64,000 nt of DNA, taken from the NCBI RefSeq assembly GCF_056712565.1, contig NZ_CM160072.1; one strand, 5' to 3'. Both the position numbers and the translations under genes were made by a program. Positions within the stretch are counted from its first letter, which is position 1, and each line of letters opens with the position of its first letter. The notes below the pieces were generated by a model, which worked only from the letters and a program-made list of their open reading frames with translations, was not told the origin of the DNA and did not search any database. Positions 37,167-53,384 of this stretch are shown in pieces.

Positions 37167-37594
37167 GAATCACTGATCGTTATGTAAATATTTATATTAC
37201 GATCGGTGCATAGGCAAAATTATGATCCAGATCACACGTGAATGTAAGTTATTTACAAATTACGCTAACCTTCTGTCTCCGCTCTTTGCAGCATAAAAGT
37301 ATGGCGGCGCGTTGTTGAAAGCAGGAGCGGCCGGGTTGTCAGAAAGCTGGTTTGGACGCAAGTAATATATAACAACTCTGATTACCGCATACTGTCAGGA
37401 CAGTATCTACTTGAGCGTCCGCCTTTGGCACAAAGCGGACTGTCAGATTAGATTCAGACCTGTACTCATTAGCTGATACAAATCAGCCACATATACCTGC
37501 ATTCAAAATAATTTCAGAAAGATATTATCTCCGTGAATCCCCCGCCACCTTTCCGGTGCACGGGGTTTTGTCTTTTTTCACTGGGAATACATGT

Positions 37595-38029
37595 ATGAAT
37601 CCGTCTGATGCCATTGAGGCAATTGAAAAACCGCTCTCCTCCCTGCCTTACCCGATTTCCCGTCACATCCTGGAACATCTGCGCAAACTCACCCGTCACG
37701 AACCCGTGCCTGGCATTATGGGTAAAAGCGGGGCCGGTAAATCCTCACTCTGTAATGCACTGTTTCAGGGGGAGGTCACCCCGGTCAGTGCACTCATGAC
37801 AGTGCTTCCCGGACATGCCGCCATCCATCTGATGACACGCCTGCAGGACGAACTGCGCACGGAGTCTGTCCGCACTCAGACCCGTGAACAGTTTACCGGT
37901 GCGGTGGACCGGATATTTGACACGGCGGAGAGTGTCTGCATTGCCTCTGTTGCACGCACGGTTCTGCGCGCCGTCCGTGACTCGGTGGTCTCTGTTGCCC
38001 GCGCGGTATGGAACTGGATTTTCTTCTGA
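37595..38029 (+). pseudogene. yeeP: yeeP/yfjP-type prophage GTPase with an internal in-frame deletion of the GTPase core
   Basis: N-terminus with P-loop GIMGKSGAGKSSLCNALFQGEV and C-terminal tail ...VSVARAVWNWIFF are present, but the G3-G5 region is missing (145 aa instead of about 290). Confidence 0.55.
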
Positions 38030-38116
38030 ACCCGGTGGTGATGTACCAGGCTGTTGTTACAGATTTTTAACTCCATGAAAACACTATGCAAACGCAGCCA
38101 TACCCGGGGTGTCCCC

Positions 38117-38145
38117 TTGCGTTGTGTTCCTCAAGTTAATAGAAT
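38117..38145 (+). promoter_or_regulatory. candidate sigma70 promoter (-35 TTGCGT, 17-bp spacer, -10 TAGAAT) for the dynamin-like operon
   Basis: Hexamers read in sequence at 38117..38122 and 38140..38145. Confidence 0.45.
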
Positions 38146-38147
38146 AC

Positions 38148-38190
38148 ATCGATCGTTACTATTATATTGATCGTTATAAACGATCGTTTG
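38148..38190 (+). promoter_or_regulatory. cluster of three GATC (Dam) sites including the palindrome GATCGTTATAAACGATC, immediately downstream of the candidate -10
   Basis: GATC at 38151, 38169 and 38182; perfect palindrome at 38169..38185. Confidence 0.5.
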
Positions 38191-38246
38191 TAGTAAATGA
38201 CCTCCTCCGTGGTTGTCATGAAAATGCGTCTCAGGAAGGTTAAATA

Positions 38247-40631
38247 ATGCACGAAAAGAACATCGCCCTGCTTTGTGATGAAGCCGACCGACTTTTGCAA
38301 CTGAACATTAATCTGCTCCGGCAAATGGTTGAGGAGCCAGATGTGTTATCTGACAGTAAGAACGAAAACAGACTGCTTTTTGATAAACAGAAAGCACTGA
38401 AAAGAATTGAGGAGCTGGAGGGCGAACAAATCAAAACCGCCCGCAGGGAGATGGTGCTGGCTGTTGTCGGCACGATGAAAGCAGGCAAATCAACCACCAT
38501 CAACGCCATTGTGGGGCAGGAAATTCTGCCTAACCGTAACCGCCCCATGACCTCTGTACCGACGCTCATCCGCCACGTTCCCGGAAAAACTGAGCCGGTT
38601 CTCCATCTGGAACATATTCAGCCTGTCCGCAATTTATTAATCACACTGCAGGAAAAACTCGCCACCCCGGCAGGACAGCAGGTCGCACAGACCCTGCAGC
38701 AAACCGGGGATACCCGCGAACTGCTGGATATTCTGACGGATGATGGCTGGCTCAAAAATGAATACCACGGGGAGGAGGAAATCTTTACCGGACTGGCATC
38801 GTTAAACGATCTGGTTCGTCTTGCTGCGGCAATGGAGACTGAATTTCCTTTTGATGAATACGCAGAAGTGCAGAAACTGCCGGTGATCGACGTGGAATTC
38901 AGCCATCTGGTGGGGATGGATGCATGCCAGGGAACACTCACACTGCTGGATACCCCCGGCCCTAATGAGGCCGGACAACCGCAGATGGAAGTGATGATGC
39001 GGGATCAACTGCAGAAAGCCTCTGCGGTTCTGGCTGTGATGGATTACACCCAGATGAACTCAAAAGCGGATGAAGACGTCCGTAAAGAGCTTAATGCCAT
39101 TGCTGACGTATCAGCCGGCCGCCTGTTTGTACTGGTCAATAAATTTGATGAGAAAGACCGCAATGGCGATGGGGCAGATGCCGTACGCCAGAAAGTTCCG
39201 GCAATGCTGAACAGCGATGTGCTGCCCGCCTCCCGCGTTTATCCCGGATCCTCACGCCAGGCATACCTGGCTAACCGTGCGCTTCATGAGTTACGGAAAA
39301 ACGGAACCCTTCCTGTTGATGAAGCCTGGGTCGATGATTTTGTCAGGGAAGCCTTCGGTCGCATGAAAAAAGATTACGTCTGTAAAGACAGCGAACTGGC
39401 AACTGAAGGGGCGACAGACCTGTGGGAATGCTCACTTATCGATCAACTGATAACGGAAGTCATACTGAGTTCACACTCCAGAGCTGCGGCACTGGCGGTT
39501 GATTCTGCCGCCGCAAAACTGATGCAGAATGCAGAAAATATCAGTGAATACCTGTCGTTACGCCATCAGGGGCTGATGCAAAGTATTCAGTCACTGCAGG
39601 CGCATATCACCAGCCTGCTTGAGGATATCCGGGAAATAGCAGACTGTCAGGAGCAGGTGACCGCTGATGTCAGAATGGCCATGGAGGAGATCGATGCCAG
39701 AACCCGGGAATTACTGACGGGGGTCTGCACCTCACTGGAAGAGGAGCTGAATGACTATTTCAGAAGCGGTAAACGCAAAGAACAGCAAATGCTGGAGGAA
39801 GAAAATTCAGCGCAGCCCCGGGAGAGAAACGCATTCGCTTTCTTTCACGATATTTTCGGAACCGGAAATCAGCATGACAGGATGCGGGACTTTGATCCCG
39901 ACAGCCCCGAAATAAAATTCAGTGATCGCAGGGAAGCCCTTGAACTGATGACGCAAATCGAATCGACCGTGACCAGCCTGCACCGTGAGGCTGAAGCACA
40001 GTTCCGGCCTGAGCTGGAGAAAATCGTCAGCGGGATTGAAACAGGTTTTCGTGGCACGGCCCTGTACGCCACAGAAAACATTGCCGGTCGCATCAATACC
40101 CGCCTGGAGGATGAGGGCTTTACCGTAAAAATCAGTTTTCCGGCAGTCAGTCAGTTACAAACCCGGCTCGCGGTAAAAACAAATCTGAGTGCGCTTATGG
40201 AGGAAAGAACGGAGACCGTCACCCGTCGCCGTCGGCAGAGTGGTTTATGGGGAAAGATTTGTGGAGCGTTTGGCACCAGTGACTGGGGCTGGGAAACCTA
40301 TAAAGAGGATGTGAGCCGCAGTGTTATCAATATCAACACCGTCAGGAAGGAAGTTATGTCACTGACCCGGGCATATTTCGGGGAGCTGCAGGCATCCATT
40401 GAGCAGGATATTAACCAGCCCGTCCGCCAGGAAATCGATGCCTTTTTCTGCGCATTCAGGGAGAAAGTTGAACAACTGCGTAACACGCTGATTCAGAGCT
40501 CTGAAGATCATAAACGCGATCAGCAGGCACAGGAACGGCTTACCAGGCGACTTCAGGCATTAAATGAAAGGGTTCCTGAGCTCATTACTGACAGTAAGGC
40601 GCTGAGGGAAGAGCTGGAGACAATGCTGTGA
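38247..40631 (+). CDS. bacterial dynamin-like large GTPase (CrfC/YjdA-type)
   Basis: 794 aa; G1 GTMKAGKSTTINAIVG, G3 LLDTPGPNE, G4 LVNKFDEKD, long coiled-coil C-terminal half; RBS aggaagg 8 nt before ATG. Confidence 0.8.
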   Translation: MHEKNIALLCDEADRLLQLNINLLRQMVEEPDVLSDSKNENRLLFDKQKALKRIEELEGEQIKTARREMVLAVVGTMKAGKSTTINAIVGQEILPNRNRPMTSVPTLIRHVPGKTEPVLHLEHIQPVRNLLITLQEKLATPAGQQVAQTLQQTGDTRELLDILTDDGWLKNEYHGEEEIFTGLASLNDLVRLAAAMETEFPFDEYAEVQKLPVIDVEFSHLVGMDACQGTLTLLDTPGPNEAGQPQMEVMMRDQLQKASAVLAVMDYTQMNSKADEDVRKELNAIADVSAGRLFVLVNKFDEKDRNGDGADAVRQKVPAMLNSDVLPASRVYPGSSRQAYLANRALHELRKNGTLPVDEAWVDDFVREAFGRMKKDYVCKDSELATEGATDLWECSLIDQLITEVILSSHSRAAALAVDSAAAKLMQNAENISEYLSLRHQGLMQSIQSLQAHITSLLEDIREIADCQEQVTADVRMAMEEIDARTRELLTGVCTSLEEELNDYFRSGKRKEQQMLEEENSAQPRERNAFAFFHDIFGTGNQHDRMRDFDPDSPEIKFSDRREALELMTQIESTVTSLHREAEAQFRPELEKIVSGIETGFRGTALYATENIAGRINTRLEDEGFTVKISFPAVSQLQTRLAVKTNLSALMEERTETVTRRRRQSGLWGKICGAFGTSDWGWETYKEDVSRSVININTVRKEVMSLTRAYFGELQASIEQDINQPVRQEIDAFFCAFREKVEQLRNTLIQSSEDHKRDQQAQERLTRRLQALNERVPELITDSKALREELETML

Positions 40632-41533
40632 CTTCACCATTTATTCAACAAATTGCTGATAACCGGGTATGTCAGGTACTCACCTGTCTTCCTGAAAAAT
40701 TTGTGGTTGATTTCGCAAACGGAATCGATGTTGCACAGGAGCATATCCGCACGGCCGGAGAGCGCACGTTCTTCCGGCGTTTAAAAGAGGGACTGACCGG
40801 CGAAGGCGCTGCACGGCAGAATGCCATCAATGCTTCGGTTGCACAGGGCCTTGAGGCGTCCCTGCGCTGGCTGACGGAGCTGACAACGTCACTTGCCACC
40901 ACAAACTACGCGATTACCCGGGTAAACGACAGGGTCAGTTCACTGGTCAGTGATACTGCCAGGCTGGCGCATTATTCCGCAGATACACGGGAGCAGTTAC
41001 TCATCCTGGCCGATCAGGTTCACCATAAACTGAATCATCTTGAAGAAAAACTCCACCGTGTTGACCAGGTTCAGCGGGCGCAGTTACATCTTGAGCAGAT
41101 ATTCTCATGGTGGAGCGCCGGGCGATATGCGTCATTTTCCCCTGCCGGACGTTGTTATGTGGCGCTTGAAGAGCTTCGCTGGGGCGCGTTTGGTGATGTG
41201 ATACGTCAGGGCGAAACAGGCCAGGTTAACCAGCTACTGGATATTCTCAGACATAAAGCATTAACGCAGATGGCACAGGAGAGTGGCGGTAGTGCAACCG
41301 TGCGTCTGAACACTCTGGACTGGCTTGGTGGTCAGGGCCGGGAGCAGGCAGATAACGAGTGGCATGACGCGATTAACTGGCTGGGAGACTGGTGCAGTGA
41401 AGAGCAGCATCCGGTGATCTGGTCAACCACGCAGGCTGCAGAACACTTACCGGTTCGCATGCCTCGCCTCTGCTCTGCAGAACGCCTCTCTGAAAGTATG
41501 GTCGATGAAATATTTCAGAAGGGGGCTGCATGA
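40628..41533 (+). CDS. dynamin-associated partner protein (possibly YjcZ-like), function unknown
   Basis: 301 aa; GTG start overlapping the dynamin stop (GTGA overlap), implying translational coupling. Confidence 0.55.
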   Translation: MTSPFIQQIADNRVCQVLTCLPEKFVVDFANGIDVAQEHIRTAGERTFFRRLKEGLTGEGAARQNAINASVAQGLEASLRWLTELTTSLATTNYAITRVNDRVSSLVSDTARLAHYSADTREQLLILADQVHHKLNHLEEKLHRVDQVQRAQLHLEQIFSWWSAGRYASFSPAGRCYVALEELRWGAFGDVIRQGETGQVNQLLDILRHKALTQMAQESGGSATVRLNTLDWLGGQGREQADNEWHDAINWLGDWCSEEQHPVIWSTTQAAEHLPVRMPRLCSAERLSESMVDEIFQKGAA

Positions 41534-42600
41534 GTACAGAAATGAAAACGGGGCTGGTGCTGTCCGGTGGCGGGGCGGTGGGCGCTTATCAGGCGGGAGT
41601 GGTTAAGGCACTGGCAGAGTGTGGTACACAGATCAGCATGGTTTCAGGGGCCAGCATTGGCGCATTCAATGGTGCCATTATCGCGGCCTCTCCCGATCTG
41701 TCAGAAGCTGCCGTACGCCTGGAGGCGCTCTGGGATCATCTGGGGAATAATCAGGTGCTGTCGGTAAACCGATTGGTTTACTTTTCATTGCTGAAAAAAT
41801 TGTTCCAGGCAATGAACCTCTGCCAGATCCCCGGACGTGCAGGAGCACTGCTTACGACGCTTCTTCGCCATATATCGATACTCAACGGGTTTGACAATCT
41901 GATGGCTCAGCCGTTGTTGTCAGATGAGCCCCTGACAGCGCTGTTGGATCATTATCTTGATACTGATGCTCTGGCAGACGGGCTACCGCTGTATGTGTCG
42001 CTGTACCCCACAGAAGGGGGCATGCAGGATATTATTGACTGCATTCGTGCTGAACTGGGTGCCGGAACCACGAAAAACGCCGTTTTTCAGCATATCCAGA
42101 GCCTGCCCCGCGGACAGCAGAAAGAGGCTCTGCTTGCGTCAGCCGCGCTGCCCCTGCTGTTCCGTCCCCGTGAGGTTCAGGGGACAATGTTCGGTGATGG
42201 TGGTATGGGAGGATGGCGAAATATGCAGGGAAATACCCCTGTGACGCCTCTGGTCGATGCCGGATGCAATATGGTGATTGTGACGCATCTGAGTGACGGT
42301 TCTTTATGGGATCGCCAGGCTTTTCCGGACACCACAATCCTTGAGATCCGTCCCCGGAAAAGGCTGAAATATGCAGGTGATGGTGACAACAGCGGCGGTC
42401 TGCTCAGTTTCACGTTGGCACATACCGACGCCTGGCGTCAGCAGGGCTATGAAGACACGATGCTGACGATGGAGCATATCCGGAAACCGCTGGCAGCACG
42501 TCAGGTACTGTCCCGGTCAGAAACGGTGTTGCAGAAAAGTCTGGAGATAACGGAAGAGGCAGATTTGGCACTGAGAAACGCGATGGCCCGGATTAAATAA
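41530..42600 (+). CDS. patatin-like phospholipase
   Basis: 356 aa; glycine-rich oxyanion loop LSGGGAVGAYQAG, nucleophile elbow GASIG (GxSxG), catalytic-Asp DGG motif (FGDGGMGG); ATGA overlap with the preceding gene. Confidence 0.8.
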   Translation: MSTEMKTGLVLSGGGAVGAYQAGVVKALAECGTQISMVSGASIGAFNGAIIAASPDLSEAAVRLEALWDHLGNNQVLSVNRLVYFSLLKKLFQAMNLCQIPGRAGALLTTLLRHISILNGFDNLMAQPLLSDEPLTALLDHYLDTDALADGLPLYVSLYPTEGGMQDIIDCIRAELGAGTTKNAVFQHIQSLPRGQQKEALLASAALPLLFRPREVQGTMFGDGGMGGWRNMQGNTPVTPLVDAGCNMVIVTHLSDGSLWDRQAFPDTTILEIRPRKRLKYAGDGDNSGGLLSFTLAHTDAWRQQGYEDTMLTMEHIRKPLAARQVLSRSETVLQKSLEITEEADLALRNAMARIK

Positions 42601-42617
42601 AGACGCCCCAAAGAAAC

Positions 42618-42641
42618 GCCACCGCCTGTGGTGGTGTTTTT
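42618..42641 (+). terminator. rho-independent terminator after the patatin gene
   Basis: Hairpin gccaccgcctgtggtggtg followed by ttttt. Confidence 0.55.
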
Positions 42642-42930
42642 CCTGGCTGGTGTTATTGAAAATATTTTCAGATATATATTACCTGAGAGAAAGTTTTACC
42701 CCTCACCTGTCAATTCACTCACTGGAAATTTAATTATGCAATTACCTGTAAAGTTATTAATGAGCCTTATATCTCTGGTCAGCGTTATTGCACGTGCCGG
42801 GAAATATAAAAATTACATCCGGGATGAAATAAAATACTGGCGATATACATCATACAAGGGGGGGGAATTTCCGGAAGGTTTCACTGATGAGAAATTTTCC
42901 AGCGCCATTTACAACGGAAGAATATTTACA

Positions 42931-43413
42931 ATGAAACGTTTACATACCCTGATGTTATTTCTGGCGGTTCTGTTTACTGGCTTTAACGTGGAAGCAGCGA
43001 GCGTGAAACAAGCGCTCAGCTGCGACCCAAACGCCCGGGCTGAACAACCTGGAGCGTGTCCAACAACGTACGAGTTGTACGAAGGTGACGCTGCCTACAA
43101 AGCTGCGCTTGACAAAGCATTAAAACCGGTCGGACTGAGCGGCATGTTCGGTAAAGGCGGGTATATGGATGGCCCTGGCGGAAACGTAACGCCAGTAACC
43201 ATTAACGGTACAGTCTGGCTCCAGGGCGACGGTTGCAAAGCCAATACCTGCGGCTGGGACTTTATCGTAACACTCTATAACCCAAAAACCCATGAAGTCG
43301 TTGGCTACCGCTACTTTGGTTTAGATGACCCGGCCTACCTGGTTTGGTTCGGCGAAATTGGCGTGCATGAATTCGCGTATCTGGTGAAAAACTACGTAGC
43401 TGCGGTTAACTAA
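42931..43413 (+). CDS. secreted protein, possibly Ivy-like (inhibitor of vertebrate lysozyme) fold
   Basis: Signal peptide MKRLHTLMLFLAVLFTGFNVEA; Cys pair in GDGCKANTCGWDF reminiscent of the Ivy CKPHDCG loop; assignment tentative. Confidence 0.4.
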   Translation: MKRLHTLMLFLAVLFTGFNVEAASVKQALSCDPNARAEQPGACPTTYELYEGDAAYKAALDKALKPVGLSGMFGKGGYMDGPGGNVTPVTINGTVWLQGDGCKANTCGWDFIVTLYNPKTHEVVGYRYFGLDDPAYLVWFGEIGVHEFAYLVKNYVAAVN

Positions 43414-43428
43414 TTTAAGGAGTCTGTC

Positions 43429-43839
43429 ATGAAAACTTTTATCAAAACTTTACTCGTTGCTGTAACTATTCTGTTCTCTGTCTTCGCTACGGCGAAACAA
43501 GTAAAACTGCCAAACAACATCAAATACGTTAATACTACAGAGGCGTTTTCCTGTACTGAGATTGACGGTATGAATTGCCAGACGAAGAATCCGTTTAACT
43601 ATAAAGATAACAGCTATGTTTTCGTGCTTGAACGTGGTGGTGCCTGGTGTTACGACTACACTGTCTCGGTACTTAACCTGAAAACCGGGAAAGCACAGAT
43701 GCTCGAATACAAAGACAACCAGCTGTGCTCAGGTAGCAACAAACCGTTCTTCGAAATCAAAAATGGCGTACCGACGGTAGGAGTCATCGACACATCCGGA
43801 AAACCTGTCGTTGTGGCTCTGGACAAACTTAAAACCTGA
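43429..43839 (+). CDS. small secreted cysteine-containing protein, function unknown
   Basis: Signal peptide MKTFIKTLLVAVTILFSVFATA, 136 aa, RBS aaggag upstream. Confidence 0.5.
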   Translation: MKTFIKTLLVAVTILFSVFATAKQVKLPNNIKYVNTTEAFSCTEIDGMNCQTKNPFNYKDNSYVFVLERGGAWCYDYTVSVLNLKTGKAQMLEYKDNQLCSGSNKPFFEIKNGVPTVGVIDTSGKPVVVALDKLKT

Positions 43840-43980
43840 GGAGTAAACCATGCGTTTCTCTGCACATTATTAATATCAAAGGTAAATACAGCCCCAGCCA
43901 TTGTTGCCGGAAAGCCGCTTAATGCGTGGCTCGCCAGTGAAAGGCTTCTCAGACAATAAACCTCATTCATTTCACCCGTC

Positions 43981-44016
43981 AGGCCGCGTCTTCTCCGGGA
44001 GACGTGGCTTTTTTCA
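43981..44016 (+). terminator. rho-independent terminator after the secreted-protein pair
   Basis: Hairpin around ccgcgtcttctccgggagacgtgg followed by cttttttc. Confidence 0.5.
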
Positions 44017-44059
44017 TTTATTACACCAGTAAATCTTAACCACCGATAAGGAGCAAAGT

Positions 44060-44881
44060 ATGCGATTAGCAAGTCGTTTTGGTTATGCTGCAAACCAGAT
44101 ACGTCGTGACCGTCCACTGACACATGAAGAGCTGATGCACCATGTGCCGGGGATTTTCGGGGAAGAGAAACACACGTCCCGAAGCCAGAACTATACGTAC
44201 ATCCCCACCATCACCGTACTGGAAAATCTGCAGCGGGAAGGCTTTCAGCCGTTCTTCGCCTGCCAGACCCGTGTGCGCGACCAGAGCCGCCGGGAATATA
44301 CCAAACATATGCTGCGTCTGCGGCGGGCCGGACAGATAACCGGTCAGCATGTGCCTGAAATTATTCTGCTCAACTCCCATGACGGTTCATCCAGCTACCA
44401 GATGTTACCCGGATATTTTCGTGCCATTTGTACCAATGGCCTGGTCTGCGGTCAGTCGCTGGGAGAAGTCCGGGTGCCACACCGGGGAAACGTGGTGGAC
44501 AGGGTCATAGAAGGTGCTTACGAAGTGGTGGGCGTGTTTGACCTGATTGAGGAAAAGCGTGATGCCATGCAGTCGCTGGTCCTGCCGCCACCGGCACGCC
44601 AGGCGCTGGCACAGGCGGCGCTGACTTACCGTTATGGTGATGAACATCAGCCCGTCACCACTACCGACATTCTGACGCCACGACGCCGGGAGGATTACGG
44701 TAAGGACCTGTGGAGTGCTTATCAGACCATCCAGGAGAATATGCTGAAAGGCGGGATTTCCGGTCGCAGTGCCAGAGGAAAACGTATCCATACCCGGGCC
44801 ATTCACAGCATCGATACCGACATTAAGCTCAACCGGGCGTTGTGGGTGATGGCAGAAACGCTGCTGGAGAGCCTGCGCTGA
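44060..44881 (+). CDS. DUF932-family cryptic-prophage protein (YfjQ-like)
   Basis: 273 aa; position and size match the DUF932 gene preceding the antirestriction/RadC genes in CP4-57-type elements. Confidence 0.5.
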   Translation: MRLASRFGYAANQIRRDRPLTHEELMHHVPGIFGEEKHTSRSQNYTYIPTITVLENLQREGFQPFFACQTRVRDQSRREYTKHMLRLRRAGQITGQHVPEIILLNSHDGSSSYQMLPGYFRAICTNGLVCGQSLGEVRVPHRGNVVDRVIEGAYEVVGVFDLIEEKRDAMQSLVLPPPARQALAQAALTYRYGDEHQPVTTTDILTPRRREDYGKDLWSAYQTIQENMLKGGISGRSARGKRIHTRAIHSIDTDIKLNRALWVMAETLLESLR

Positions 44882-51754: not shown

Positions 51755-51956
51755 ACCCTCAGGAGTTTCAAATAGCTGTTCTTTTTACGGAAATACTTAT
51801 GAACTGGCTGGAATAAAGTGCAAGAAAATGTGACTACCCTCTCATTTTTATCTGACATGATCTGTTGCCACTCGCTGCCAAATTGTCGCGCTAAAGCTGA
51901 TTAGCACGGTGATATTTGATACTCTGGCAGACAGCAGAAACAACGGATTTAACCTA

Positions 51957-53384
51957 ATGATGAATGACGGTAAGCAACAATCTACCTTTTTGTTTCACGA
52001 TTACGAAACCTTTGGCACGCACCCCGCGTTAGATCGCCCTGCACAGTTCGCAGCCATTCGCACCGATAGCGAATTCAATGTCATCGGCGAACCCGAAGTC
52101 TTTTACTGCAAGCCCGCGGATGACTATTTACCCCAGCCTGGAGCAGTATTAATTACCGGTATTACCCCGCAGGAAGCTCGGGCGAAAGGAGAAAACGAAG
52201 CCGCATTTGCCGCCCGTATTCACTCGCTTTTTACCGTACCGAAGACCTGTATTCTGGGCTACAACAATGTGCGTTTCGACGACGAAGTCACACGCAACGT
52301 TTTTTATCGTAATTTCTACGATCCTTACGCCTGGAGCTGGCAGCATGATAACTCGCGCTGGGATTTACTGGATGTTATGCGTGCCTGTTATGCCCTGCGC
52401 CCGGAAGGAATAAACTGGCCTGAAAATGATGACGGTCTACCGAGCTTTCGCCTTGAGCATTTAACCAAAGCGAATGGTATTGAACATAGCAACGCCCACG
52501 ATGCGATGGCTGATGTGTACGCCACTATTGCGATGGCGAAACTGGTAAAAACGCGTCAGCCACGCCTGTTTGATTATCTCTTTACCCATCGTAATAAACA
52601 CAAACTGATGGCGTTGATTGATGTTCCGCAGATGAAACCCCTGGTTCACGTTTCCGGAATGTTTGGGGCATGGCGCGGCAATACCAGCTGGGTGGCACCG
52701 CTGGCGTGGCATCCTGAAAATCGCAATGCCGTAATTATGGTGGATTTGGCAGGAGACATTTCGCCATTACTGGAGCTGGATAGCGACACATTGCGCGAGC
52801 GTTTATATACCGCAAAAGCCGATCTTGGCGATAACGCCGCCGTTCCGGTTAAGCTGGTGCATATCAATAAATGTCCGGTACTGGCCCAGGCGAATACGCT
52901 ACGCCCGGAAGATGCCGACCGACTGGGAATTAATCGTCAGCATTGCCTCGATAACCTAAAAATTCTGCGTGAAAATCCGCAAGTGCGTGAAAAAGTGGTG
53001 GCGATATTCGCGGAAGCCGAACCGTTTACGCCTTCAGAGAACGTGGATGCACAGCTTTATAATGGCTTTTTCAGTGACGCCGATCGTGCAGCAATGAAAA
53101 TTGTGCTGGAAACCGAGCCGCGTAATTTACCGGCACTGGATATCACTTTTGTTGATAAACGAATTGAAAAACTGTTGTTCAATTATCGAGCGCGCAACTT
53201 CCCGGGGACGCTGGATTATGCCGAGCAGCAACGCTGGCTGGAGCACCGCCGCCAGGTCTTCACGCCAGAGTTTTTGCAGGGCTACGCTGATGAATTGCAG
53301 ATGCTGGCACAACAGTATGCCGATGACAAAGAGAAAGTGGCGCTGTTAAAAGCGCTTTGGCAGTACGCGGAAGAGATCGTCTGA
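51957..53384 (+). CDS. sbcB: exodeoxyribonuclease I
   Basis: MMNDGKQQSTFLFHDYETFGTHPALDRPAQFAAIRTD...; 475 aa from ATG at 51957. Confidence 0.9.
   Translation: MMNDGKQQSTFLFHDYETFGTHPALDRPAQFAAIRTDSEFNVIGEPEVFYCKPADDYLPQPGAVLITGITPQEARAKGENEAAFAARIHSLFTVPKTCILGYNNVRFDDEVTRNVFYRNFYDPYAWSWQHDNSRWDLLDVMRACYALRPEGINWPENDDGLPSFRLEHLTKANGIEHSNAHDAMADVYATIAMAKLVKTRQPRLFDYLFTHRNKHKLMALIDVPQMKPLVHVSGMFGAWRGNTSWVAPLAWHPENRNAVIMVDLAGDISPLLELDSDTLRERLYTAKADLGDNAAVPVKLVHINKCPVLAQANTLRPEDADRLGINRQHCLDNLKILRENPQVREKVVAIFAEAEPFTPSENVDAQLYNGFFSDADRAAMKIVLETEPRNLPALDITFVDKRIEKLLFNYRARNFPGTLDYAEQQRWLEHRRQVFTPEFLQGYADELQMLAQQYADDKEKVALLKALWQYAEEIV

Follow-up and report, generated by a model that had tools for sequence, protein, structure and literature searches.

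In the current analysis we describe a three-gene operon encoded in a 64,000-nucleotide stretch of DNA (contig NZ_CM160072.1 of the RefSeq assembly GCF_056712565.1, referred to here as the window). Its products are a dynamin-like GTPase, a protein of the RdcB/YjcZ family and a patatin-like phospholipase, and it lies behind a promoter region of the type known from antigen 43 (Ag43). The reading that we favour, at a rough probability of 0.45, is that of a self-contained, bistably expressed and horizontally mobile module in which the GTPase gates a cytoplasmic lipase, with a conflict or abortive-type role in cells that are in phase ON. The features of the operon are as follows.

38117 to 38145, plus strand: sigma-70 promoter homologous to the agn43/cah promoter, with -35 TTGCGT (38117-38122), a spacer of 17 nucleotides (nt) and -10 TAGAAT (38140-38145)
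38151 to 38185, no strand assigned: predicted OxyR-binding and phase-variation switch with GATC (Dam) sites at 38151, 38169 and 38182, from alignment with agn43 alleles
38247 to 40631, plus strand: gene 1, dynamin-like GTPase of 794 amino acids (aa), a paralogue of RdcA/CrfC/YjdA (NF007368, Dynamin_N, AlphaFold2 model and Foldseek)
40628 to 41533, plus strand: gene 2, adaptor of the RdcB/YjcZ family, 301 aa (PF13990), with a GTG start that overlaps the stop of gene 1
41530 to 42600, plus strand: gene 3, cytoplasmic patatin-like phospholipase of 356 aa (PF01734), with invariant Ser42 and Asp223
42612 to 42646, plus strand: terminator-like hairpin (42620-42636) and T-run after gene 3, from a terminator scan and folding

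The overlaps between the genes can be read directly in the sequence, as GTGA at 40628-40631 and ATGA at 41530-41533. A preliminary description of the locus, made from the letters of the window, had proposed three translationally coupled genes, and the reading frames and both overlaps are found exactly as it gave them. Its assignment of the first product to the dynamins and of the third to the patatins is likewise borne out by Pfam, with a Dynamin_N match of 1.2e-17 in gene 1, the only one of the three genes with this domain, and a Patatin (PF01734) match of 7.3e-25 in gene 3. The chromosome of Escherichia coli Nissle 1917 is 100% identical to the window across 37500-44100, and three identical coding sequences have been called there by the Prokaryotic Genome Annotation Pipeline (PGAP) and named 'dynamin family protein', 'diguanylate cyclase regulator RdcB family protein' and 'patatin-like phospholipase family protein'. 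No hydrophobic stretch above the Kyte-Doolittle threshold for transmembrane segments is present in the proteins of genes 1, 2 or 3. The terminator that had been placed at 42618-42641 is also confirmed, as the hairpin at 42620-42636 has a folding energy of -21.5 kcal/mol (z = -3.7, with none of 200 shuffled sequences folding equally well) and is followed by a run of T.

The NCBIfam model NF007368, the equivalog model of CrfC, matches the product of gene 1 over its entire length with 550.7 bits, where 1146 are required, and the identity of this product to RdcA of E. coli K-12 is 34%, likewise over the full length. Since the match is full length and yet below the equivalog cut-off, this protein is regarded as a homologue or paralogue of RdcA/CrfC/YjdA and not as its equivalog. 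The G1 (GTMKAGKST), G2 (Thr102), G3 (DTPG) and G4 (NKFD) motifs are invariant across 26 homologues. The AlphaFold2 model (mean predicted local distance difference test score 78) combines a G domain with very long stalk helices and, at residues 652-695, a β-hairpin insert. When the whole length of the model was compared with Foldseek, the best match was BDLP (2j69, 2.8e-13), followed by SynDLP, IniA, mitofusins, Cj-DLP and LeoA. As modelled, the fold of gene 1, with its G domain and helical stalk, is that of the dynamin superfamily.

The hairpin at the tip of the stalk carries a polybasic and aromatic motif, TVTRRRRxxGxWGxxCxWFxTDDWGWE (window 40215-40300, residues ~657-685), that is specific to the clade of dynamins linked to a lipase. 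In the RdcA clade, whose members are soluble, the polybasic run has been lost together with the first Trp and the Cys. The confidence of the model at the tip is modest, and we infer from the motif a possible role of this region in binding lipid or the lipase.

Gene 2, which the preliminary description had left as an unspecified partner, belongs to the RdcB/YjcZ family, with a full-length match to PF13990 (YjcZ) at 2.5e-71 that agrees with the PGAP name. Its product is 31% identical to K-12 RdcB/YjcZ over the full length. The AlphaFold2 model is all-helical and finds no specific fold match. As gene 1 is a paralogue of RdcA and gene 2 a member of the RdcB family, the nearest characterised system is rdcAB, known for the control of cyclic di-GMP (c-di-GMP), which had not been considered earlier.

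The motifs of the catalytic dyad of gene 3, GASIG (GxSxG, Ser42) and DGG (Asp223), do not vary among 30 sequences. The nearest solved structures are PlpD, VipD and ExoU, and the likeness is confined to the catalytic motifs. The oxyanion-hole motif, expected as GGGx[R/K]G, reads GGGAVG in the window (41575-41583, residues 16-18). The form with Lys (GGGAKG) is found in 24 of 30 relatives, and V or I replaces the basic residue only in the Enterobacterales branch.

In K-12, RdcA is known to dimerise and to bind RdcB, and it docks on the membrane-embedded MASE1 domain of DgcE, thereby activating DgcE, only when it is not bound to GTP (PMC6510439). The cassette resembles rdcAB in the order of a dynamin-like GTPase gene followed by a translationally coupled gene of the YjcZ family, in the full-length homology (34% and 31%) of both products and in the conservation of the GTPase motifs, including the Lys and Thr residues that have been mutated in RdcA (PMC6510439). 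The two differ in that rdcAB has two genes, with no lipase in 50 species, and is a core, single-copy locus of the flagellar regulon (PMC6510439), whereas the cassette has a third gene, is accessory (~45% of genomes), follows an Ag43-type switch and carries the distinct stalk-tip motif.

The distribution of the family has been surveyed by scanning the YjcZ alignment against one genome per species, which gave 79 loci, with gene content assessed by tblastn. These fall into two groups. The three-gene group has 29 loci, with YjcZ proteins 34-98% identical to that of the window and with the genes colinear (dynamin, YjcZ, patatin) wherever the contig allows; 24 of them have a full-length dynamin, in 4 the dynamin is cut by the end of the contig and one (L026) starts at the YjcZ gene. 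It is represented in Gamma- and Betaproteobacteria, including Pantoea, Erwinia, Budvicia, eight Pseudomonas, Allochromatium, Thiodictyon, Macromonas, Aquaspirillum, Comamonadaceae, Gallionella, Paenacidovorax, HdN1 and others. The two-gene group comprises 50 loci, all in Enterobacteriaceae, that encode a dynamin and a YjcZ protein (32-36% identical to the window) and no patatin. Independent look-ups have revealed the three-gene architecture in Methylomonas, Pseudomonas, Allochromatium, Pectobacterium, Klebsiella, Yersinia and metagenomes.

By its gene spacing and sequence divergence the cassette behaves as a unit: intergenic gaps range from -8 to +18 nt in every three-gene locus, and the identities of its three products rise and fall together from locus to locus (r = 0.96). 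Since all the 50 core rdcAB loci are without the lipase and all the 29 accessory loci have it, the lipase is proposed to be the cognate output of the GTPase and its adaptor. A midpoint-rooted neighbour-joining tree built from a concatenation of proteins 1 and 2 places the two-gene clade inside the diversity of the three-gene form, with the three-gene system of Budvicia as its sister; as the tree is without bootstrap, the nesting is suggestive only. Core rdcAB thus looks like a patatin-less offshoot of the three-gene module that has been rewired to DgcE. The module also occurs in Pseudomonas, Chromatiales, Methylococcales and Betaproteobacteria, outside the Enterobacteriaceae in which the link between RdcA and DgcE is known.

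Within E. coli, core rdcAB is encoded as a single copy in 5404 of 5426 genomes (99.6%). The three-gene cassette is found in 2442 genomes (~45% of complete genomes), with up to five copies, and its hosts include Nissle 1917, extraintestinal pathogenic E. coli (ExPEC) and O157:H7. All three open reading frames (ORFs) are intact and 95-100% conserved in >2400 genomes. In a resequencing study of E. coli ATCC 25922, 122 'mutations' have been listed for crfC, 75 for rssA and 10 for yeeP (PMC7696260); this pattern is what mis-mapping of reads between paralogous copies of the cassette would produce, and fits it better than real mutations.

Variants of the module have also been identified. IncR/IncF plasmids of Klebsiella and Enterobacter (L099:6977-9004, L100:6773-9004) encode a form whose YjcZ protein is 62% identical. 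These plasmid copies are passengers in which the dynamin gene is 5'-truncated by IS1, and one copy is mis-annotated as 'dGTPase'. In Methylomonas koyamae (L005:8617-8916) an extra ORF of 99 aa, with no match in Pfam, is situated between the dynamin and YjcZ genes, and the same is seen in an independent metagenomic contig (L006).

The promoter of the cassette is, by homology, a switch of the Ag43 type with predicted control by Dam and OxyR. The candidate promoter that had been noted at 38117-38145 holds: both hexamers can be aligned to the promoters that precede flu in K-12 and cah in O157. The -35 TTGCGT matches O157 cah at every position, and TAGAAT is the -10 of both K-12 flu/agn43 and cah. 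A generic promoter scan of the window did not list this pair of hexamers. In five aligned copies of the switch, two linked to a dynamin and three to members of the Ag43 family, there is no variation in the three GATC sites and the distances between them, in the -10 or in the central part of the -35, and the 47-nt core of the switch shares 35-37 of 47 nt with agn43 alleles. The 64-kb window has a single occurrence of the triple-GATC pattern, where 0.01 would be expected. At agn43, binding of OxyR over the GATC sites represses transcription and methylation by Dam blocks OxyR, giving rise to heritable ON and OFF states (PMC3764049, PMC2909390). By sequence likeness to this locus, binding of OxyR and phase variation are inferred for the switch of genes 1-3.

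In K-12 the triple-GATC pattern begins at the annotated 5' end of isrC, the leader of agn43. The long leader of agn43 is absent from the cassette, where an unrelated leader of about 60 nt precedes gene 1, and a scan of 37800-38500 with Rfam for IsrC or any other RNA gave no match. Origin of the junction between switch and dynamin by a simple deletion of cah has been rejected, the leader sequences of cah and of the dynamin gene being unrelated. The agn43/cah switch is alike in its hexamers, its three GATC sites and their spacing, and is found at the corresponding slot of elements that belong to one family; it drives an autotransporter adhesin there, and would drive a cytoplasmic enzyme operon here.

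A census of this junction in E. coli has revealed the switch directly before the dynamin gene in 1984 genomes, and a complete cah/agn43 gene followed by 110 bp and the dynamin gene in 635. No promoter or terminator motif was found in the 110-bp spacer, and in these cah-linked genomes the adhesin and the lipase module may form one phase-variable transcription unit. The O157:H7 locus (L004:3090-11647) is of this kind, with the cassette 110 bp behind a complete gene of the cah/agn43 family. The module is kept in taxa without an upstream switch of the Ag43 type, so that the Ag43 link is specific to the E. coli element. In the literature searched, no paper ties the Ag43 switch to a dynamin operon, nor GATC/OxyR control or patatins to bacterial dynamins.

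Budvicia aquatica has four GATC sites (L017:3894-3942) that form two pairs 13 nt apart, about 590 nt upstream of its dynamin gene. The layout is similar to that of gtr and opvAB. In sequence the sites have no relationship to the Ag43 switch, and they may place the same module under Dam by an independent route.

A mechanism can be proposed from these features. In E. coli the predicted Dam/OxyR switch would make expression of the module bistable. The RdcA-like GTPase and the RdcB-like adaptor would form a complex, by analogy with their K-12 paralogues, and this complex would gate, at the inner membrane, the patatin lipase that is translated along with it. If the GTPase works as RdcA does, GTP would hold the switch off and the nucleotide-free form would engage a membrane partner. 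Because GTP keeps the switch off in this analogy, the lipase would be freed when the GTP pool or the state of the membrane collapses under stress or infection, and the phospholipids of the inner membrane would then be hydrolysed. The biological role would most likely be a conflict or abortive-infection-type function in the phase-ON subpopulation. The sensor and effector pair suggested in the preliminary description survives to the extent that a GTPase controlling a lipase is still the most economical reading.

One set of published expression data concerns the operon. RNA sequencing of E. coli MP1 has revealed homologous operons described as 'dynamin, RdcB-family, phospholipase' on two islands that are strongly up-regulated in Kapi1 lysogens (PMC12922286). 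The induction was seen in all media and was independent of the lysis-lysogeny decision, it occurred alongside hyxRAB of PAI-X, and a cluster of five genes was co-induced (PMC12922286). The authors proposed in 2026 a putative dynamin phage defense system, a suggestion made without supporting experiments, and cited the work on hyxRAB as 'epigenetic regulation' (PMC12922286). Three further features of the window, all downstream of gene 3, are relevant to the cluster of five.

42736 to 43413, plus strand: ORF4, annotated coding sequence of a small protein that contains hydrophobic segments; an accessory gene of the E. coli-type cassette
43429 to 43839, plus strand: ORF5, annotated coding sequence of a small protein with an N-terminal signal-like segment
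43981 to 44020, plus strand: strong terminator-like site closing the five-gene block, with a stem of 13 pairs (7 of them GC) followed by a T-run

ORF4 and ORF5 (42736-43839), both with signal-like hydrophobic N-termini, are found only in the E. coli/strain-10 type of cassette and not in O157 or in other genera. ORF4 is kept in the divergent cassette of strain 10 and is absent from that of the O157 type. Searches of the two proteins against Pfam, NCBIfam and PADLOC gave nothing significant, the lysozyme inhibitor Ivy being matched at only E = 0.46. The two ORFs probably belong to the co-induced cluster of MP1. As its five genes match the block of three genes and two small ORFs in the window, transcription is likely to read through the hairpin at 42620, which may be leaky; the terminator scan places a stronger terminator at 43981-44010.

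The gene hyxR is under the control of a FimX-invertible promoter. As hyxRAB and the dynamin operon are thus both known or predicted to be phase-variable, the difference between lysogens and non-lysogens of MP1 may reflect clones in different ON/OFF states and not cross-talk from the prophage. For agn43, such differences in phase state between clones have been documented as a pitfall (PMC3764049).

A defence role of the cassette is plausible, and its context lends this some weight. In 17 three-gene loci, 70 flanking ORFs were surveyed, and strong matches to defence genes were found within 6 kb in 5 loci (29%). The flank in Pantoea eucrina encodes BrxC of the bacteriophage exclusion (BREX) system at 1385 bits. 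A type I restriction-modification methyltransferase and specificity subunit lie directly downstream in P. putida. In Erwinia, JukA/JukB follow directly, with a McrB-like gene beyond and a pair of SNF2-like helicase genes upstream that recurs in Pantoea conspicua, and HdN1 encodes PDC-S24 (592 bits) directly downstream. Other leads from PADLOC in the flanks were set aside or doubted: 'mad3' is an MsbA-like ABC exporter and 'mad8' the TraD protein of an integrative and conjugative element (both by NCBIfam), and 'RTasPolA' is probably PolA itself, judging from the length of the protein and the position of the match. Regulators of the WYL/WCX type adjoin the module in 9 of 25 contexts, in three of them immediately adjacent or divergent. 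WYL-class regulators are known to control BREX (BrxR) and the cyclic-oligonucleotide-based antiphage signalling system, CBASS (CapW). The other contexts of the module are integrase islands, an integrative and conjugative element and CP4-like elements, together with some plain metabolic neighbourhoods. The module seems to be genuinely, if moderately, associated with conflict loci. This would suit a defence system of a kind overlooked by guilt-by-association screens, and equally another function that is costly and tightly regulated.

The cassette is distinct from the named defence systems that it resembles. Eleos is defined by two consecutive genes for dynamin-like GTPases (LeoA and LeoBC), and its dynamin operon shows 60% defence adjacency (Millman et al. 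2022). It shares with the cassette a GTPase of the dynamin superfamily and an island-borne location, and LeoA is among the Foldseek matches of gene 1. LeoABC/Eleos needs two dynamin-like genes, only one is present here, and rdcAB is closer; with one GTPase and weak matches to the hidden Markov models, membership in Eleos/LeoABC has been rejected. The effectors of the CapV type in CBASS are similar to gene 3 as cytoplasmic lipases of the patatin fold with a Ser-Asp dyad that would need an upstream activator. CBASS differs in that the cassette is without a cyclase or nucleotide-sensing gene, and no model of the cGAS/DncV-like nucleotidyltransferases matches any of the five genes between the promoter and the DUF932 gene. 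Membership in CBASS/CapV has also been rejected, as NF041079 scores 18.3 bits against a cut-off of 200 over the N-terminal 70 residues only.

For the three cassette proteins PADLOC-DB v2 has no model of a system and gives weak partial matches only. The cassette is unnamed and is not recognised by PADLOC, and in this sense the earlier remark that the combination was not recognised as a named system stands; the gene content itself is already in print, where a defence role has been proposed (PMC12922286, 2026).

Several observations speak against the reading of a GTPase-gated lipase with a conflict role. The PADLOC match to LeoBC is weak (4e-6, 24 bits) with no single stretch passing, LeoA is not matched, and the match to the CBASS lipase (9.5e-5) is confined to the N-terminus of gene 3. 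A context of defence-island type had been described for the window; the ten neighbouring proteins that were run against PADLOC gave no match and include no known defence gene, and the antirestriction, RadC and CbtA/CbeA genes on which that description drew are backbone of the element. No homologue of gene 2 is present in 50,697 phage records. The defence adjacency of 29% is lower than the 60% given for the dynamin operon of Eleos (Millman et al. 2022). No swapping of the effector is seen at the third position, which is always a patatin in the 29 loci. Complex formation, gating by GTP and binding to the membrane are carried over by analogy from paralogues of 31-34% identity, and the Enterobacterales copies of the lipase, being without the canonical basic oxyanion residue, could have attenuated activity.

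A more specific form of the proposal is that the cassette represents a new family of abortive systems, directed against phages or triggered by stress, in which the GTPase would read the GTP pool or the state of the membrane, the YjcZ adaptor would free the lipase, the switch would in E. coli arm only a subpopulation, and RdcA/RdcB would be the domesticated, lipase-less descendant. We hold this form to be tentative and rather doubtful.

Among the other explanations, the one that survives best is protective remodelling, repair or vesiculation of membranes in the manner of DynA or LeoA, in which the lipase would supply lysolipids or clear damaged lipids without killing the cell. The full-length structural likeness of gene 1 to the membrane-active BDLP, SynDLP, IniA, Cj-DLP and LeoA in Foldseek, the polybasic and aromatic motif of the tip and the published work on DynA and LeoA are all in keeping with it. 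A repair function is a poor fit to a patchy distribution on mobile elements, to expression that is phase-variable or under WYL control and to multiple copies per genome, and the paralogue RdcA is a soluble regulatory protein and no membrane remodeller (PMC6510439). We consider this explanation unlikely.

The homology to RdcA and RdcB, which activate DgcE (PMC6510439), raises the alternative of a biofilm module, in which the pair would dock on a sensor of the MASE1 type (DgcE or another), tune c-di-GMP in Ag43-ON cells and leave to the lipase an adjustment of lipids. The Ag43 switch is shared in E. coli, and the position of the module behind a complete cah/agn43 gene in 635 genomes would also suit such a role. 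This alternative is made quite unlikely by the conservation of the module in taxa that have no upstream switch of the Ag43 type, by the presence of core rdcAB in nearly every E. coli genome already, by an identity to RdcAB of only about 30-34% and by a stalk-tip motif that is systematically different between the clades.

That the operon is decaying passenger DNA of a CP4-44-like element, functionless in E. coli, is suggested by surroundings rich in insertion sequence (IS) elements and pseudogenes, by the IS1-truncated plasmid copies and by the loss of the oxyanion-motif lysine from the lipase. It is highly improbable in view of three intact ORFs conserved in so many genomes, of catalytic residues that are all invariant, of the conserved switch and of the strong transcription in MP1 (PMC12922286). 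Least credible of all is a secreted virulence phospholipase of a pathogenicity island with the GTPase pair as its chaperone or regulator, for which PlpD, VipD and ExoU as nearest solved patatins and an island location in ExPEC/O157 strains may be cited, since the likeness is limited to catalytic motifs, gene 3 has no hydrophobic N-terminal or transmembrane-type segment, the operon has no secretion system and the module is common in environmental non-pathogens (Methylomonas, Gallionella, Allochromatium).

Within the literature searched, three points appear to be new, namely that the form with the lipase is the widespread form, that the tip motif is specific to its clade and that the module is linked to the Ag43 Dam/OxyR switch. 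If the preferred reading of a bistably expressed, GTPase-gated lipase is true, it would explain where the RdcA/RdcB signalling pair came from in evolution, and a lipase would be the likely ancestral output of that pair. The Ag43 Dam/OxyR regulon would have a second class of cargo that is not an adhesin, and a membrane-destroying enzyme would be placed under a new control logic that combines the GTP state with epigenetic bet-hedging. The module is prevalent, being found in ~45% of complete E. coli genomes, often in several copies, and recurring across Proteobacteria. An Ag43-type switch alters how tests of expression and phenotype must be designed, as the ON/OFF state of the locus can confound any comparison of clones by phenotype or RNA sequencing, and functional screens from the native promoter may have missed the cassette because most cells would be OFF.

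The cassette is situated at the site that flu occupies in the CP4-44 element of K-12, as had been recognised earlier; the backbone genes and the chromosomal site are the same. It is preceded by a yeeP-like remnant and followed by genes for DUF932 and an antirestriction protein, yeeS, yeeT, cbeA, cbtA and yeeW, and then by tmaR-yeeA-sbmC-dacD. The remnant is given here in the same manner as the features above.

37595 to 38029, plus strand: remnant of the YeeP/YkfA-type GTPase gene of the element, which precedes the cargo slot (named 'hypothetical protein' by PGAP; match to K-12 yeeP)

The 3' part of this remnant is >90% identical to the yeeP pseudogene of K-12. The YeeP-type gene is internally deleted in the window (435 nt), compared with an intact gene of 873 nt in strain 10 and O157, and the switch that adjoins it downstream is intact.

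Two other loci of the window have been observed. On the minus strand at 6958-8810, about 30 kb upstream of the cassette, a gene of the IbrB-like (ParB-type) family overlaps a gene of the phosphoadenosine phosphosulphate (PAPS) reductase family, the two forming a pair of the IbrA/IbrB type. An orphan gene of the ClbS/DfsB family of four-helix-bundle proteins, the family of colibactin self-resistance, lies on the minus strand at 51759-52277 beside ISEc53, between sbmC and dacD.

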